From: a virus
Virus record (IMG/VR): IMGVR_UViG_3300010354_000044
Coordinates: 107,985-171,984 of that record
Length of the DNA: 64,000 nucleotides
Direction: 5' to 3' (one strand)
This document shows positions 1,388-37,286 of this stretch, in pieces. Numbering within the stretch: the stretch's first letter is position 1; the number at the start of each line of letters is the position of its first letter. The notes beneath the pieces were generated by a model, which saw only the letters and a list, made by a program, of their open reading frames with translations, was not told where the DNA came from and ran no database searches. Made by a program: the position numbers and the translations under genes.

Positions 1388-1726
1388 ATGGAAAATAATG
1401 AAAGCGTGGTAGAGCTAATGGAAATATACGGGGGCTTGTCCAAGCTGCGACCGATTCTTAAAGACGTTCCGCCTGAAAAGTGGGAAGGTCTGATAGAAGC
1501 AGCCCGGTATACAATAGAACTTCGCAAAGAGCTAGAAGAAAGTTCCATTCCTCATGAGGAATGGGGAGGCGCTATAGAGGCTTGCAAGATCCTTCTAGAT
1601 CTAAAACGTTCTTACAAGGGCGGAAGTCTAGTTGAGGCCCTTAGCCGTAATCGCAGCCGGATAGCTAACTTAGATACACAATACCAAGCTTGGCTTCTAA
1701 GAAACGTTACTATGCTGATTGATTGA
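1388..1726 (+). CDS. hypothetical protein with internal repeat (VPPEKWEGLIEA / IPHEEWGGAIEA)
   Basis: 112-aa ORF; duplicated helical motif. Confidence 0.7.
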   Translation: MENNESVVELMEIYGGLSKLRPILKDVPPEKWEGLIEAARYTIELRKELEESSIPHEEWGGAIEACKILLDLKRSYKGGSLVEALSRNRSRIANLDTQYQAWLLRNVTMLID

Positions 1727-1839
1727 GCTCAATCGTTTTCAGAAGTTAATTGTAGGAGAATCAATTTAAAAGTTTTAAAGAATAGTTGTCTTTTTTAACT
1801 TACGTGTGTTAAGGTAGAAAGACCTTACTCTAGATAGCC

Positions 1840-2310
1840 GTGTACAAACAAAAACGTAAGCCCAAGAAGAGAGAAGTTGGTCGGCACAGCCCCGGCGCTC
1901 AGTCTCGGCTGGATAAGTTTGTACAGACCCATAGAGCAGAGAAGGAAGCTAATCCTCTGCCCTTGGATTTCTACCGCCCTATTTATCTCCCCAATAACTT
2001 CTGGGAGACTCTACGCAGCTACGGCAATCTGTACGTGTACGCACGTATGCTAGATAAAAAGGGCGCAGGGGTTGTTACCTTTAATACGGACTTTGCAGCG
2101 GGCGAGCTCTACATGATGCCCCGGACGTGCAAAGATTATATCCGCACCTGCCTGCGGAAAGGTTTGTTTAGGCATATAGAGTGGTTAGACAAAACGACCG
2201 TCAAGGTCTATTACAACTCTATGCCTAAGCTAATGTTGGGCTTAGAAGCAGAGTCCAACACTGAGATTCTCTTGGAGAGTCCGGAGGACATCCTGAGAAA
2301 AAAGTCCTGA
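1840..2310 (+). CDS. N-terminal part (0 frame) of a frameshifted winged-helix DNA-binding / putative replication initiator protein
   Basis: 156-aa basic ORF ending at A_AAA_AAG slippery site; HTH-like segment FAAGELYMMPRTCKDYIRTCLRKGLF. Confidence 0.65.
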   Translation: MYKQKRKPKKREVGRHSPGAQSRLDKFVQTHRAEKEANPLPLDFYRPIYLPNNFWETLRSYGNLYVYARMLDKKGAGVVTFNTDFAAGELYMMPRTCKDYIRTCLRKGLFRHIEWLDKTTVKVYYNSMPKLMLGLEAESNTEILLESPEDILRKKS

Positions 2311-2335
2311 TTCCTGAGGATAGTGTCCTCAGGAA
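2283..2335 (+). promoter_or_regulatory. programmed -1 ribosomal frameshift cassette (internal SD + A_AAA_AAG + hairpin)
   Basis: GGAGG 2283-2287; AAAAAAG 2298-2304; perfect 10-bp stem TTCCTGAGGA/TCCTCAGGAA 2311-2335; -1 frame open through to 2972. Confidence 0.8.
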
Positions 2336-2972
2336 GCAGGAACAGAGTCAGTTTCGCGCTCAGCAGGAGCTGCGCACTAAGCTGCAGCAAAAGCTGAAAG
2401 ACGAACTAAACGTAAGAAAGTTAGGTGCTGAAGGAGAAGAGCATGTAGAAAAAGAGTTTAAGGACCAAATGCTCACGCTTGCCGACTTCTTTAGAAAACC
2501 CTCTGTTAATGCCGGGGGCACTGTTTTGAAGAGGAAAAGTAAACGCCGAAAACGGCGGAATAAAGCTCTTATTTATCGCGGCAAGCGGTTCACGTTGGCG
2601 CATCCAGACGCCCCTCTGTTTGGAGCTACCCAGAAGGCGATCGGCTTAGAGATAGGCCGGGCCCGCAAGACTGTATCCCGACGGCTATCTAATAGCTATC
2701 GGGAGAAAGTGGCAAAGAAATATAAGATCACTATCAAACCCCTTCAGCGCACCCAGGTGTTAATCCATTTGGGTGATGCCGCTGCTGCAGAACAGGCCCA
2801 GCGAGAGTCGCTTGAGCGCCTCCCGATTGCGGTCTACAACGATAAATCTTATATTTGCCGGCCTAACGTCTACAAGGGGACAGCAGAGACACCAAGAAGC
2901 CAACGGCGGGTGCGTCAGCACCTTCGCCAACTTGAAGCTAAGCTACAAAAGCGTAGCTCCGATGATGCTTGA
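2304..2972 (+). CDS. C-terminal part (-1 frame) of the frameshifted DNA-binding protein, second HTH
   Basis: Frame of track ORF 2469..2972 is open upstream across the slippery site; HTH-like GATQKAIGLEIGRARKTVSRRL. Confidence 0.65.
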   Translation, partial: VLIPEDSVLRKQEQSQFRAQQELRTKLQQKLKDELNVRKLGAEGEEHVEKEFKDQMLTLADFFRKPSVNAGGTVLKRKSKRRKRRNKALIYRGKRFTLAHPDAPLFGATQKAIGLEIGRARKTVSRRLSNSYREKVAKKYKITIKPLQRTQVLIHLGDAAAAEQAQRESLERLPIAVYNDKSYICRPNVYKGTAETPRSQRRVRQHLRQLEAKLQKRSSDDA

Positions 2973-3012
2973 TTTTATCAAGCGTTGCTTCTTGGGTTTG
3001 GTTGCTTCAACA

Positions 3013-3316
3013 CTAGCGCCCCTCCGCTAGGTTGTAGCAGCGAAGCGAAAAATTTATTGAAATAATATTTTCTTCGCTTCGCTGCTGGATTTTCAGCTCC
3101 GCCAGTTTTTTTTGGTGAGCTGCCCCGTGAAAAATTTTTTTATTATTTTTTTTTTGCGGGGCATGAAAGGGGGGTTATTCTTACACAAGGAAAAAGCTAG
3201 GGTATCCTTAGCTTGATTTTTAGTGTAAAGTTATTTTTTATATTAATTTCGGGAATTAAGGGATTAAAGTTAAACCTATAGTTTTTGATAGGGGCTGCGC
3301 CCCTATCTTTTTTTTT
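3013..3316. repeat. AT-rich non-coding cluster of inverted repeats (putative replication origin or structured RNA)
   Basis: IRs at 3013-3030, 3036-3086 (14-bp perfect arms), 3121-3163, 3181-3228, 3287-3307; poly-T/A tracts. Confidence 0.6.
3287..3316 (+). terminator. rho-independent terminator
   Basis: GATAGGGGC-TGC-GCCCCTATC followed by T9. Confidence 0.7.
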
Positions 3317-3370
3317 GATTAACTTTCTAAATGTCCTTTAGAAGTTTGTATGGGTACAAACTGAATCAAC

Positions 3371-3769
3371 ATGTTCTATTCCTTTGAGTTATTCGGACCG
3401 CGCTTGCGCGCGTACGAGCAGAAATTAGCTGAGCTATCGCTGTATGACCCCCCAAGCCCCCCTTCCCCCCAAACCTCGGCAGAAGGACTTAGCGATACAT
3501 CGCCCTTCCAGGAGGCTATTGATGCAGGATTAGCTATGCTAGACTGTATAAAACCAGCATCTACCGAAACCTACGGCCAACACTTTCTAAGCGTTGTCAA
3601 GCTAATAGTAAGAGCGCAGCAATACCCGCTGGCTTTACAACTCATTACAGATTACCGTTGCCCCGCTAAGTACATCTCGGGCGAACTAAAGACTTTAAAG
3701 GAAGCTATCAACACATGTCTTACTTCACCGGCTACAGACAACGACTGCAGCTCAACCATCAGAACTTAG
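3371..3769 (+). CDS. hypothetical protein
   Basis: 132-aa ORF. Confidence 0.65.
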   Translation: MFYSFELFGPRLRAYEQKLAELSLYDPPSPPSPQTSAEGLSDTSPFQEAIDAGLAMLDCIKPASTETYGQHFLSVVKLIVRAQQYPLALQLITDYRCPAKYISGELKTLKEAINTCLTSPATDNDCSSTIRT

Positions 3770-4854: not shown

Positions 4855-4881
4855 TTGTCTAAACCCTACCCCAAGGAAAAT

Positions 4882-7077
4882 ATGGCTACCATCAACCTGC
4901 TACCTAATTACCTTTACCTCGCGTCAGGGCCCTCGGCGTCGGGTAAGAGCACAGCACTTAAGGGCCTGCCTGCAGGGGTAGTGGTGTCCTCAGACAGCTT
5001 GAGAACCCAAATATTCGGTCTTGAAGCTGATACTGTAGAGGGTAACCTACTAGCCCCTCCTAGCCTAAGACCCCGCCCTGTCAACGATAGCTTTATCTTT
5101 GACACCATGAGACAGATCGTGGAGGCCCGTCTTAAAGCAGGACTGACAACAGTCGTAGACGCAACTTTGTTAACCGACCGTGACCGCAAGCAGTTCGTGG
5201 ATATAGCTGCTAGCTACAACGTCCCTGTTCAGATTTTGATCTGGGATGTTCCCGCCGAGCAGCTGACTACTAGAGATGCAGATCGTCAGTTCCGGGTAGG
5301 GGCTGAGGTTATCCAGCGACAACTGGAGCGCTTTGAGCGTACATCCCAGTACTCCTATATTGTAGACGACTACTTTGAGCTTGAAATAGCTCACCTAACA
5401 GTAGCTAGTAGCGTAGAACTGGATTTCGTGGGTGACATCCACGGCTGCTACGACCAGTTAATAGAACTGATTGAAAAGCTAGGCTATGTTATTGGCGAGG
5501 ACGGTATTGCTAGGTATGCTGGTAATGAGCCCCGGCGTCTGTGCTTTTTGGGCGACTATGTAGACCGAGGGCCCAAGTCCTTAGAGGTACTCAAATTCAT
5601 TTACCGGAATACGCCTACGCATTGGGCGTTGCTGGGGAACCATGATAGTAACCTTCTCAAGGGGTTGCTAGGAAAACCCGTAACCTCCAAGGCCACACAG
5701 GAGACCCTCCATGAAGTGATGGTCGCCAAGGCGGAGAAGTGGGTTACAGAGCTACTGACCTCACTGCCTCGTTATCTAACCTGGCGGAATGTCGTTATTT
5801 GCCATGCCGACATCCAGAGGCTTAACTTACCTCAGGAGACAACTCAGTGCGTTTACGGTTGTAGTAAACTGAACAGGCCTATAAACGCCGATGAAATCTG
5901 GAGTAAGACTGAGAAGCGCCTGCTTATCCGCGGTCACTTTACTCCTGACCACGAGTACGATAACGTCATTACCCTGGACGGTAATCCGGGCTATGGCGGT
6001 ACTATTAAAGCAGGGCGTTTTGCTGTTGCTCAAGTTGCGGGTCGGAAGCATGATAACTTCTTAATCCAGCAATGGATTGAATTCTCATTAGGGCCTACGG
6101 AAGATTATGAAGAACGCAAGAAGACTGTAATAGGTTTTCGCCTTGCCGCTATGCCAAAAGAGTTGGTTAGCACGGCTACATCGCCTTGCGGCCACCTCAA
6201 GCTGTTTAAATACACGCCTAATGCCTTTAGACAGTCCTTTAAATCTGAAGGGCCTTGGCTGGAGTACCCTGACCTTAAGTACGCCCGAGGCCTTGTCGTA
6301 GGCCTTAACCACCAACCGGTGAACACGGTCTTTCCTAAAATTCCTAGTTACACCGAAGGAATTGATCCGAGCAAGCAGGTGATTGCCGCGACAAAGTTGA
6401 ACGGCTTTCTCCTAGCTACATTCAGACATCCTTACAAAGAGGATGTGGTCTTCACTACTACCGGGTCGTTTGACTCTGAGTACGTAAAGATGGGCCGTGC
6501 ATTGTTCTACAAGCACGCAAAACAGTCTCGGCAGCAGCTCCTAAACAGCCCGGGATTGACATTCTTGTGGGAGGTTATAGACCCTAATAAAGACCAAAAT
6601 GTCCACCCTATTGCCTCGTCCGCAGGCATCTACCTAATTGCTGTAGGGCAAAATGGGGTAATCCTCCCCGAGGAGGAGATGCAAAGCTACGCCGGCAACT
6701 TGAATGTCAACTGTGCCAGTCATGTACAGACTGACTTCGGGTCAGTCCTAGAAATGGCCCGCACCAGCGACGGCGAGGGCTATATGATTAGGGACTTGGA
6801 AGGTAACTACCTTGCAAAGCTCAAATCACCGTTTTACCTGACTGTCAAGAAGTTTATGCGTCTATCGCCAAAGGCGGGCGCACAGCTCTTTAACGACCCT
6901 ATTAATTTCAACTTTGAGTATATTTGGCAGCAGTGCATGGACAACCCTTATGCCAACGACCTTTATACCCGGCAGACAGCTATCGCCGAAGCTATCCGAA
7001 CACACTTTTCCTGTGAAACTTGGCAACAAGCAGATAGTTTAACCCGTAGAGAATTTCTCTATCGCATGTTAAGCTAA
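4882..7077 (+). CDS. trifunctional RNA repair enzyme: polynucleotide kinase + metallophosphoesterase + Rnl1-like RNA ligase
   Basis: P-loop GPSASGKST and DAT; MPP motifs GDIHG, GDYVDRG, GNHD; ligase motif I KLNG, EGY, KLK; AAGG upstream of ATG4882. Confidence 0.88.
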   Translation: MATINLLPNYLYLASGPSASGKSTALKGLPAGVVVSSDSLRTQIFGLEADTVEGNLLAPPSLRPRPVNDSFIFDTMRQIVEARLKAGLTTVVDATLLTDRDRKQFVDIAASYNVPVQILIWDVPAEQLTTRDADRQFRVGAEVIQRQLERFERTSQYSYIVDDYFELEIAHLTVASSVELDFVGDIHGCYDQLIELIEKLGYVIGEDGIARYAGNEPRRLCFLGDYVDRGPKSLEVLKFIYRNTPTHWALLGNHDSNLLKGLLGKPVTSKATQETLHEVMVAKAEKWVTELLTSLPRYLTWRNVVICHADIQRLNLPQETTQCVYGCSKLNRPINADEIWSKTEKRLLIRGHFTPDHEYDNVITLDGNPGYGGTIKAGRFAVAQVAGRKHDNFLIQQWIEFSLGPTEDYEERKKTVIGFRLAAMPKELVSTATSPCGHLKLFKYTPNAFRQSFKSEGPWLEYPDLKYARGLVVGLNHQPVNTVFPKIPSYTEGIDPSKQVIAATKLNGFLLATFRHPYKEDVVFTTTGSFDSEYVKMGRALFYKHAKQSRQQLLNSPGLTFLWEVIDPNKDQNVHPIASSAGIYLIAVGQNGVILPEEEMQSYAGNLNVNCASHVQTDFGSVLEMARTSDGEGYMIRDLEGNYLAKLKSPFYLTVKKFMRLSPKAGAQLFNDPINFNFEYIWQQCMDNPYANDLYTRQTAIAEAIRTHFSCETWQQADSLTRREFLYRMLS

Positions 7078-35234: not shown

Positions 35235-37286
35235 TTAACCGTTATACCTGTAAAGCGGAGTTTGTCCCGACACATTTTGTACAGCCCTAATTTGGGGAAT
35301 TGTACGCTCCGACCACACAGCGACATTCTCTGTGTAATTCTGGACAACCTGACTTCTTCTAACTGACATAGTGCCCCCAAACAAATAGCCCTTTTTGCTG
35401 CTGGCGGCTCCACTCATACTGGCGCGTCTTGAGTTAAAGCTGTTTAGATTTAAGGCTAGATTACTCAAGCTTTGGTTAACTGAATTAAACCTTACAGCTG
35501 AATTCCCCCCGATGATAGGAGTTGTTGTAGAAGAGCCTGCAAATATATAGGCAGAGGTTTCGTCAGCAAATGAAGCGGCGCCAAATACGTTAGCGCCTAA
35601 GTCTAAAGAGCCAACCGCGTTAACACTGGTTGAATTCAAAGCAATAGAGCGGACACTATTTACGATGGTGGTATTATTAACCCCACCAAATATGTAACCT
35701 ATGGATATACTAGATGCCCCAGAGTAGAAAGCTTCTGACGTACTAGAATAGGTCGTGGATGCCAAGCTAATAGCTAAAGCATTAGCGGCTTCTGTCACAT
35801 ATAACAGCTCCACCCCAGCATTACTACTTAGATGAGTCCCATTCGTTTGGACACCTCCAACGAAATAACCTTTTGTGTTATCTCCAAAGGCTGCGCCCCC
35901 AGATGGGTTTAATGCAGTTAAAGCTGCTAGGTTTAATTGAACTGAAGATTGTTTTACAAAATTGAATTTTTCTACAGTCCAGGTCCCTGACGTAGTATTG
36001 ATGGGTGTTATAGAGCCAAGGCCGGTTATATACATGGCCGCTGACGAGGCTACTGAAGTAGCATCAGCTTTCGTTTGCACCAAGCCTGTATAAACTTCAG
36101 CAGCAATTGCATCAGCACCTGGAATAGCTGAGATAACCTTCAACGTCTCAGTCTGGATATCAAGACGCTGGATAGTCTTACTGTAGCCAGTTATCCCATG
36201 TCCGCCCGCAATATAAATAGCCCCAGGCAGCGCTGTCACCTGTTGAGGCTGCCCAATAGTGCTTGTGTAAACCGCCGGCATCTTGTAGTTAAAGACTTCA
36301 CAAGATGCATTCTGTAGTTCAGCAATAGACCGTGCGTAATCTAAATTTACCCGGCGCTGTTGGTCAGCTAGAAAATTAGTATAAGCACGTCCAGCCGCTT
36401 CAATTCTGTTCCTTAAATCAGGGACCCACTCAAGGTCTCCCCCACTAGGAGCAACTTGAATCATTGCTAGTGGGCTGGGTCTATTAGTTGTTAGAATATC
36501 ATTTAAACTAATAGACCCAGGCCCACTCCCGCCACTAGACTGATTGACCCACTCCAAGGACATAGCCGAGGAGGGTCCTTTAATAGCTAAGACGCGCCCT
36601 ACAGCAGCACCGGAAGCGTTAATAGACCCTAAAGTAACAAGTTGATTAGACGCAACTAAACTTAGGATGTTATTGGATACGGTGAAGTCCGAGCTTAAGG
36701 CAATAGCCGCTGTTCCAGACTGCTGGCCTAAGGCAATCGTTCCCGGTGAGTTCTGTATCGTAGCCGGGGCCACAACGGTCGCTGGCGTTGGTAGGCTAAT
36801 TTGGGAAGCAGTAACGGCTGCATTACTTATTTTGCCCCAAGGAACAGCACTAATTGACAGCTGCTCGCCTGATAGCTGAAATTCCGTACTTAGAGTATAA
36901 GCACGTCCGGCGCCTCCGAATCCCACAGGTAACTGGCGATCAGAGAGTAGAAGATTCTCTGCTCGTAATGTTCCTGTTAGTCGAGAAGCATCTAGGCTCT
37001 GGAGCTTTAAAGCTCCTCCCACAACATCAAATTCAGGCCCTAAAGGGACATAAGTGTTGCCAACAACAACCTGCCGAGGAAGACCTGCAAAACTTAGTTT
37101 ACGTGAGCTAGGACTCCAACTTAACCCAGGCCCTGCAATATCGTCATTTTCACTTAGAGTTAGCTGGACATTTAGATTAACTTTTTCGGCAAAATTCCGT
37201 AAGGTATCTCCCTGTCCGTCTCCGGGAGTTATCCCCGTGTTAATTTGCTTCAGACCGTTAGGAAGGTCAGGTAAATTTATAGCCAT
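35235..37286 (-). CDS. tail fibre / receptor-binding protein with C-terminal Kelch-like beta-propeller
   Basis: N-terminal INTG..PGDGQGDTLR..EKVN (T4 gp9/gp10-type anchor); shaft repeats; IYIAGG, GYFVGG, GYIFGG, AYIFAG, GYLFGG blades. Confidence 0.75.
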   Translation of the reverse strand: MAINLPDLPNGLKQINTGITPGDGQGDTLRNFAEKVNLNVQLTLSENDDIAGPGLSWSPSSRKLSFAGLPRQVVVGNTYVPLGPEFDVVGGALKLQSLDASRLTGTLRAENLLLSDRQLPVGFGGAGRAYTLSTEFQLSGEQLSISAVPWGKISNAAVTASQISLPTPATVVAPATIQNSPGTIALGQQSGTAAIALSSDFTVSNNILSLVASNQLVTLGSINASGAAVGRVLAIKGPSSAMSLEWVNQSSGGSGPGSISLNDILTTNRPSPLAMIQVAPSGGDLEWVPDLRNRIEAAGRAYTNFLADQQRRVNLDYARSIAELQNASCEVFNYKMPAVYTSTIGQPQQVTALPGAIYIAGGHGITGYSKTIQRLDIQTETLKVISAIPGADAIAAEVYTGLVQTKADATSVASSAAMYITGLGSITPINTTSGTWTVEKFNFVKQSSVQLNLAALTALNPSGGAAFGDNTKGYFVGGVQTNGTHLSSNAGVELLYVTEAANALAISLASTTYSSTSEAFYSGASSISIGYIFGGVNNTTIVNSVRSIALNSTSVNAVGSLDLGANVFGAASFADETSAYIFAGSSTTTPIIGGNSAVRFNSVNQSLSNLALNLNSFNSRRASMSGAASSKKGYLFGGTMSVRRSQVVQNYTENVAVWSERTIPQIRAVQNVSGQTPLYRYNG

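Follow-up and report, generated by a model that had tools for sequence, protein, structure and literature searches.

The gene considered here lies near the beginning of a 64,000-nucleotide (nt) stretch of viral DNA, hereafter the window, which makes up the final 64 kb of an IMG/VR viral contig of 171,984 bp (IMGVR_UViG_3300010354_000044) with an estimated completeness of 87%. Between positions 1840 and 2972, on the plus strand, gene callers predict two open reading frames (ORFs), which are most probably two parts of one gene joined by a programmed −1 ribosomal frameshift of the dnaX/IS3 type. ORF1 (1840..2310) starts with GTG, stops with TGA and encodes 156 amino acids (aa), comprising a basic N-terminal tail and a complete winged-helix domain; its 3′ end reads AGA AAA AAG TCC TGA. 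In agreement with a preliminary description of this DNA, in which the −1 frame was noted to run open from the slip site through the second ORF, this frame is open from position 2265 to a stop codon at 2970–2972. The −1-frame coding part proper (2304..2972) has 222 codons and the stop, and encodes a long linker helix followed by a second helix-turn-helix (HTH)/beta domain. The earliest ATG, GTG or TTG in this frame is the ATG at 2469..2471, residue 56 of the −1 part, where gene callers begin the 167-aa ORF2. Because the linker (2304..2468, −1 frame), which carries the family motif KQxQS[FY], offers no start codon, ribosomes must arrive from ORF1 to translate it.

The junction of the two frames carries a three-part signal, and each part proved to be where the preliminary description had placed it. 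The slippery heptamer A_AAA_AAG (2298..2304) stands in the X_XXY_YYZ register of the 0 frame, ends one codon before the 0-frame stop TGA (2308..2310), and encodes the conserved Lys-Lys of the family. Upstream of the heptamer, a Shine-Dalgarno (SD)-like GGAGG (2283..2287) is present as a putative 5′ stimulator, separated from the heptamer by a 10-nt gap (2288–2297). Downstream, a putative 3′ stimulatory stem-loop (2305..2341) has a perfect 10-bp core (2311–2320 paired with 2326–2335) with a 5-nt loop, which begins after a 6-nt spacer (2305–2310). Both an inverted-repeat search and RNA folding extend this core by an outer 5-bp stem (2305–2309 paired with 2337–2341). The 71-nt segment folds with −29.7 kcal/mol (z = −4.4), a stability reached by 0 of 200 shuffled sequences. 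The 45 nt that follow the heptamer are matched in fold strength by just 0.1% of 45-nt windows drawn at random from the genome. These features are of the kind described for E. coli: A_AAA_AAG is among its most shift-prone heptamers (PMC5009743, PMC4066793), stimulatory hairpins begin 4–10 nt past the motif (PMC4066793), and the functional dnaX stem has 11 bp, with a calculated stability that correlates with efficiency (PMC5009743).

The signal is also exceptional within the phage itself. The heptamer AAAAAAG occurs 33 times on the two strands of the whole phage, six times in register within an ORF of at least 60 aa. Among the 33 copies, GGAGG is found upstream (10 nt) of the copy at 2298–2304 only. 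This copy also has the strongest fold behind it, and no other joins such a fold to a 0-frame stop directly after the heptamer and to 222 open codons in the −1 frame. If GGAGG and perfect 10-bp hairpins are taken at the frequencies they have in this genome, ~2e-4 heptamers should by chance be flanked by both at canonical spacing. A chance origin of the signal is ruled out.

Evidence that the two ORFs belong together comes from their homologs. With ORF1 as query, nine relatives were returned from 1.84 billion representative proteins; they include the near-identical ORF1 of a second contig (L002, described below) and two short proteins (80 and 146 aa); the remaining relatives are single proteins of 282–334 aa in which the matching domain is N-terminal. 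ORF1 matches residues ~5–110 of the homologs, and the −1-frame product matches their C-terminal halves (E = 2e-17 to 7e-19). The transframe product was assembled as 155 + 222 = 377 aa and aligned with these proteins. The alignment is collinear across the junction: PEDILRKK|VLIPEDSVLRKQEQS in the window corresponds to PEHLKFKKAIIPEAIVKAKQQQS in homolog P0007 and to PEDLKFKKAIIVEAAIASKQAQS in P0006, and the P0007 counterpart of ILRKK|VLIPEDSVLRKQEQS is HLKFKKAIIPEAIVKAKQQQS. Over the whole gene (1840..2972), collinearity extends to the single-ORF homologs P0004–P0008 and P0011 and to the Prim-Pol fusions discussed below. A profile search added further members, all single ORFs (242–355 aa), one of them from the cyanobacterium Nodosilinea sp. 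LEGE 07298. The Q..Q-S motif of the family, nearly invariant in Q and S, is located between the heptamer and ATG 2469, and several homologs have a Met at the aligned internal position. By homology, this alignment shows that the two ORFs are one gene, and it supports the earlier proposal of a single ~377-aa protein, as the intact homologs are single ORFs that run collinearly through the junction. ATG 2469 is more likely an internal Met codon than a true start.

At the DNA level, the junction was compared in five homologs. Their Lys-Lys is encoded by AAG AAG, AAA AAG or AAG AAA and is preceded by C, G or T, such that an X_XXY_YYZ heptamer is present at this position in 0 of the 5. The 60 nt downstream of Lys-Lys fold with −8 to −15 kcal/mol in these homologs, compared with −27.8 kcal/mol in the window. 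The check on homologs proposed in the preliminary description thus has a clear outcome: the other intact members are continuous ORFs, without the slip site in the five compared, and L002 keeps both the split and the slip site. With neither the heptamer nor a strong hairpin in the unsplit genes, the signal goes with the need to shift. As far as this comparison reaches, this phage lineage has acquired the heptamer and the hairpin together with the 1-nt frame offset, all three as derived characters.

Two further copies with interrupted reading frames were considered. P0025, the one hit of a search for shorter family members and a P0007-like gene at L009:4001–5050 on the same chromosomal island as the homolog in L003, was rejected as a second recoding site: this copy is broken by three scattered 1-nt indels, none of which is at the Lys-Lys. 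It is either a pseudogene or the result of homopolymer errors in that assembly, and the scatter of its indels sets this broken relative apart from the split gene of the window. A copy in the L018 genome had been flagged for an internal stop; the stop is at the extreme C-terminal end and is unrelated to the junction.

The second member of the split lineage, L002, is a 1,438-bp Logan contig from a different sample (SRR22077879) with 95% nucleotide identity to the window gene. It contains ORFs of 156 and 166 aa with the same split, and with identical A6G, GGAGG and 10-bp core hairpin. The sole substitution near the site changes TGA to TAA, which keeps the 0-frame stop and is synonymous in the −1 frame (CTG to CTA). 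Just behind the signal, the nucleotide divergence between the window and L002 is 21%. The ratio of nonsynonymous to synonymous substitution rates (dN/dS) between the two sequences is 0.07 for ORF1, 0.36 for ORF2 and 0.35 for the whole −1 part. The linker at 2304–2468 has a dN/dS of 0.27 when read in the −1 frame, as against 1.1 and 1.6 for the two remaining frames; in both sequences, the linker has no stop in the −1 frame versus four to six in each of the others. On this sequence comparison, both halves and the start-less linker are under purifying selection, the linker in the −1 frame only.

Structural predictions place the junction at a boundary between two domains. The AlphaFold model of P0007 (predicted local distance difference test, pLDDT, 90; predicted template modeling score, pTM, 0.87) consists of a winged helix (residues 7–103), a 35-residue helix (105–139) and a second domain (149–290), in which an HTH (188–217) is packed on a beta-sheet. 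The Lys-Lys of this protein, residues 111–112, is at the start of the long helix. In the AlphaFold model of the −1-frame product of the window (pLDDT 85), a helix spans residues 2–35 and thus begins at the junction, which indicates an ordered protein chain ahead of Met56 (ATG 2469). The slip site is therefore exactly at the domain boundary, on a Lys-Lys that is conserved in the stand-alone members of the family. Two segments of the phage protein have no counterpart in the homologs: a basic N-terminal extension of ~45 aa (1840–1975; KQKRKPKKRE...), which is absent from all of them and conserved in L002, and an inserted basic stretch in the −1 part, KRKSKRRKRRNK, which is predicted to be disordered.

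Scans of the halves of the window protein, made separately against Pfam, NCBIfam and PHROGs, gave nothing or sub-threshold matches, and the family assignment is accordingly taken from the homologs. Six family members were scanned with Pfam at E ≤ 0.1, and HTH_23, HTH_24, HTH_29, HTH_36 and Sigma70_r4_2 were matched in both homolog halves. Together with a model that has two DNA-binding-type domains, these matches bear out the description of the protein as a double HTH. The further statement that the protein is neither a transposase nor a tail chaperone also holds, as the Pfam and PHROG scans give no DDE domain and no chaperone signature. In Pfam, the −1 product and the homologs have HTH-type matches only and no DDE (rve) domain; the modeled −1 part is an HTH/beta domain, not an RNase H fold; and a repeat search of 1400–3500 finds no inverted-repeat pair bracketing 1840–2972. 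The window protein has no PHROG or Pfam chaperone match. The scanned neighbouring genes have no structural-gene family matches, the only family match among them being a Pnkp-like gene and the others being unannotated small ORFs. This Pnkp-like gene (4855–7077) encodes a 740-aa protein that has an AAA_33 kinase domain at its N-terminus and a metallophosphatase domain; in tblastn, its C-terminal part matches RNA ligases of phages, and the architecture is like that of Pnkp-type RNA repair proteins.

The following sequence of events is proposed. On reaching A_AAA_AAG, ribosomes that translate ORF1 would carry tRNA-Lys(UUU) in both the P and the A site. The GGAGG 10 nt upstream would pair with the anti-SD sequence of 16S rRNA, and 6 nt downstream the 10-bp hairpin, extendable to 16 bp, would resist unwinding. 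A fraction of the ribosomes, probably tens of percent by analogy with dnaX, would then slip back by one base and continue in the −1 frame to 2972, yielding the 377-aa product with its winged helix, long helix and second HTH/beta domain. Ribosomes that do not slip would read one more codon and stop at the TGA, releasing the 156-aa protein that consists of the basic tail and the winged helix. We infer that the slip takes place at the level of the ribosome and that the short 156-aa product is functional; by analogy with IS3 elements, this winged-helix protein could modulate the full-length protein. The ancestor would have been an ordinary gene without a split, to which the signal was added in this phage lineage.

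The decoding machinery may be well suited to such a shift. The shiftiness of the heptamer depends on AAG being read by the weakly pairing tRNA-Lys(UUU) (PMC5009743, PMC4066793). In Nodosilinea, the cyanobacterium in which the family was found, tRNA-Lys(UUU) is the only lysine tRNA among 42 tRNAs detected, a condition that makes A_AAA_AAG most shift-prone. The phage also encodes a tRNA-Lys(UUU), at 94004–94074 of the phage contig, ~14 kb upstream of the window start. Its other tRNAs are Met, Arg(UCU), Thr(UGU) and Pro(UGG); since the phage tRNAs apart from Met serve A-ending codons, supplementation of codon usage is the simpler explanation for their presence. A more ambitious reading, which we regard as unlikely, is that a high-efficiency recoding switch was built de novo, at the domain boundary of a replication-initiator-like protein, to fix the ratio of a winged-helix-only antagonist to a full-length origin binder, and that the phage tRNA-Lys(UUU) raises or times the shift during infection. 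If so, a viral tRNA gene would regulate recoding, beyond supplementing codon usage.

Several points weigh against a programmed frameshift. The transframe 377-aa product is a prediction from sequence and models, and the shift could merely compensate an old 1-nt deletion. The argument from tRNA-Lys rests on Nodosilinea as a proxy host. Searches for closer relatives in viral_contigs (with both halves and with the family alignment as queries), among GenBank phages (tblastn) and among JGI metagenome contigs returned none. The split lineage is consequently made up of the window and L002, two sequences that are 95% identical; their hairpin cores are identical and show no covariation, and the outer 5-bp stem is one pair short in L002. 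Despite these points, a complete dnaX/IS3-type cassette, as the preliminary description proposed, is strongly supported by the unsplit homologs, L002 and the selection on the −1 frame.

Of the other explanations, the one that survives best is that an ancestral A7 run (AGA AAA AAA GTC) lost one nucleotide in a deletion that became fixed and by which the gene was inactivated or cut to its first domain; read-through would then be incidental slippage at a low level, and the downstream part would be decaying or merely compensated. Restoring one A does give the continuous family sequence RKKVLIPE, broken family copies exist (L009), and compensatory frameshifting on indels is a recognised class (PMC5009743). 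However, the downstream 222 codons are open and under purifying selection in two lineages (dN/dS 0.27–0.36), the GGAGG and a very strong hairpin are found at canonical spacings and are both absent from unsplit homologs, and the −1 part is confidently folded in its model. A simple deletion is considered quite improbable.

Restoration of the frame could also take place in the RNA, if RNA polymerase stuttered on the A6 run and added one A to some of the transcripts. Transcriptional slippage of this kind is found in Thermus dnaX and in some insertion sequence (IS) elements. A homopolymeric A run is present here, slippage in transcription is documented as an alternative in organisms with two tRNA-Lys species (PMC5009743), and the resulting protein would be identical, so that a comparison of sequences cannot separate this route from a ribosomal slip. 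Yet six A residues are few for efficient bacterial transcriptional slippage, the known cases having ~9 or more, and the SD-like element and hairpin are stimulators directed at the ribosome, with no role in polymerase slippage. In addition, the single tRNA-Lys(UUU) of the proxy host favours ribosomal shifting. This route is judged very unlikely, and the same holds for two independent genes, with ORF1 encoding 156 aa and ORF2 encoding 167 aa from ATG 2469, and the heptamer and hairpin being irrelevant or serving another purpose, e.g., mRNA stability. Gene callers do predict two ORFs in both contigs, and an AAGGA is positioned 4 nt before ATG 2469 in the window. This AAGGA is not kept in L002, where it reads AAGCA, and the 165 nt before ATG 2469 encode the conserved helix and the KQxQS motif in a segment that is start-less, selected, and free of stops in the −1 frame alone. 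Moreover, all other intact members of the family that were found are single ORFs. Finally, a sequencing or assembly error that hides a true A7 and a continuous gene can practically be set aside: homopolymer indels are a common artefact, of which L009 with its three 1-nt indels is perhaps an example, but two assemblies from different samples and pipelines (IMG/VR and Logan), 5% diverged, have the same A6G and frame structure, and an error would leave the flanking stimulators and the 0-frame stop, kept as TGA or TAA, unexplained.

The unsplit homologs, the retention of split and signal in L002 and the frame-specific selection together make it unlikely that the assembly is wrong, that the gene is a pseudogene in decay or that there are two genes, and no rival explains the unsplit homologs, the lineage-specific stimulators, the second lineage and the frame-specific selection on the linker together. 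The proper annotation of the gene would be a single recoded coding sequence instead of two hypothetical proteins.

The function of the protein can be proposed tentatively from its wider family. A profile of the two-domain module was searched against 401 cyanobacterial genomes and the module was found in 11 of them, mostly as the C-terminal half of proteins of 490–580 aa. The homology spans profile positions ~8–290 (E = 1e-20 to 1e-42, down to 3e-42 outside the seed genome), and ten cyanobacterial copies that are fused to a Prim-Pol domain are collinear across the junction region, the long helix included. The N-terminus of the three fusions that were scanned is Prim-Pol (PF09250, E = 1e-19 to 1e-23; PHROG 'DNA primase'), and the fused forms have neither the Lys-Lys dipeptide nor a frameshift. 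These fusions (L012:967–2520, L016:916–2598 and L013:1354–2910) are ~520–560 aa long and combine Prim-Pol with the winged-helix, long-helix and HTH module. The Prim-Pol fusion family, which is uncharacterised, is probably a replicase of a mobile element. Genomic context was available for one homolog on a chromosome (L003), whose gene is flanked by an excisionase-like HTH_17 gene on one side and an Xre-type HTH gene on the other, with IS elements and a type I restriction system nearby; the L009 copy has the same neighbourhood. This context points to a mobile island.

Structural comparisons lead in a similar direction. The top Foldseek matches in the PDB are the initiators RepE54, pi and Rep, and among the structural neighbours from viruses are proteins with the names replication initiator, protein O and replisome organizer. 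The entry 8ac8_A aligns over both domains (Z 7.2, root-mean-square deviation 5.3 Å, 168 residues), and the N-terminal domain by itself is a winged helix of generic type (Z 9.5–10.9). A link to replication through the Prim-Pol fusions and the RepE/pi fold matches is plausible. An origin-binding or replication-initiation protein, with the short form modulating the long form by analogy with OrfA and OrfAB of IS3 elements, is proposed as the likeliest function, at a little less than even odds, with a transcription regulator as the main alternative. The roles of regulator and initiator given to the short and long isoforms in the preliminary description are conjectural, and the support for a link to replication is indirect.

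This functional assignment is weak. The Foldseek matches to RepE54, pi and Rep are weak themselves (E = 7.5e-3 to 0.1, ~135–158 columns, template modeling score ~0.3). Rep_3 (PF01051) has no Pfam match in the six family members (E ≤ 0.1) or in the halves of the window protein, no iteron-like direct repeats (~17–22 nt, at least three copies) were detected in 1400–3500, and a search of the phage contig, which is 87% complete, gave no Prim-Pol (PF09250). Nor was a Prim-Pol domain present in the stand-alone homologs that were scanned with Pfam. The cyanobacterial CyRepA Rep proteins were rejected as relatives for their different architecture, which is DUF3854 + DEXDc (PMC10079941).

The spacer that follows the gene (2973–3370) is AT-rich (GC content 0.32–0.35) and contains an inverted repeat with 23-nt arms at 3036–3086 and two hairpins followed by T-runs at 3194–3214 and 3287–3307. 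To judge from their sequence, these hairpins look like stacked intrinsic terminators rather than an origin. The idea of an origin or of iterons in this spacer is unsupported: direct repeats do not recur in it, and its hairpins resemble terminators. Elsewhere in the phage contig, outside the window, a second in-register A_AAA_AAG is located near position 36353 on the minus strand, within an ORF of 252 aa. Here 178 codons are open in the −1 frame, and the sequence downstream folds moderately (−16.7 kcal/mol); this heptamer could be the tail-chaperone-type frameshift of the phage or a chance occurrence.

Among known systems, the candidate site resembles that of E. coli dnaX, which has the same A_AAA_AAG heptamer read by tRNA-Lys(UUU), an SD-like sequence ~10 nt upstream and a stem-loop of ~11 bp a few nucleotides downstream. 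The spacings in dnaX are reportedly 10 nt for the SD and 6 nt for the stem (Larsen et al.). Both sites lie where two domains meet, and the phage gene, like dnaX, would yield a short as well as a long protein. The direction differs, as the dnaX shift gives the short gamma product and normal reading the long tau, whereas the shift in the phage gene would be needed for the long product; dnaX encodes a clamp-loader ATPase, unlike the unrelated two-HTH DNA-binding protein of the phage. As the stem here is perfect and extendable, its efficiency may exceed that of dnaX.

In topology, the phage gene is closer to the IS3 family (IS911, IS150 and IS3), in which −1 shifts occur on A_AAA_AAG-type heptamers, with an SD upstream in IS911 and with downstream structures (PMC4066793). 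Normal reading there yields the small HTH protein OrfA and the shift yields the full-length OrfAB, the same arrangement as here, and the logic of a short form as regulator and a long form as active protein may, by analogy, apply to the phage gene. In contrast to IS3 elements, the phage gene has no DDE transposase domain and no flanking terminal inverted repeats, and the split that is the rule in IS3 is absent from the other members of its family. Because the family is unsplit elsewhere with Lys-Lys at the site, the steps by which the signal would have originated are readable, from an A-rich Lys-Lys through a 1-nt loss to the gain of GGAGG and the hairpin. The origin of a recoding site is thereby unusually clear from a family alignment.

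The tail assembly chaperones G/GT of phages are likewise produced by a conserved −1 shift, as two proteins with a common N-terminus in a fixed ratio (PMC5009743). The phage gene differs in encoding a DNA-binding winged-helix HTH protein and in not being located between tail-tube and tape-measure genes. Being neither a tail chaperone nor part of a tail locus, it is a well-supported candidate for a frameshift in a non-structural phage gene. The phage frameshifts that are well documented are, to our knowledge, almost all in structural genes, namely tail chaperones and capsid proteins.

With the iteron initiators RepE54 (mini-F), pi (R6K) and the Rep/TrfA type, the phage protein appears to share tandem DNA-binding winged-helix/HTH domains, but a 35-residue helix lies between the domains of the phage family and the second domain has an extra beta-sheet. 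Judged on the models, the likeness to iteron Rep initiators is one of architecture only and not a demonstrated membership. The Prim-Pol replicase-like proteins are homologous and collinear over the whole two-HTH module, although the module occurs by itself, free of Prim-Pol, in the phage protein and its nearest relatives; through the fusions, an uncharacterised family is linked to the Prim-Pol replicases of cyanobacterial mobile elements. Recoding has, as far as we know, been little studied in cyanobacteria, and the compact ~60-nt cassette offers a means of testing dnaX-type frameshifting there. Taken against these systems, the case is probably one of a known mechanism in a gene family new to it, a non-structural, DNA-binding and probably replication-related gene of a large cyanophage.

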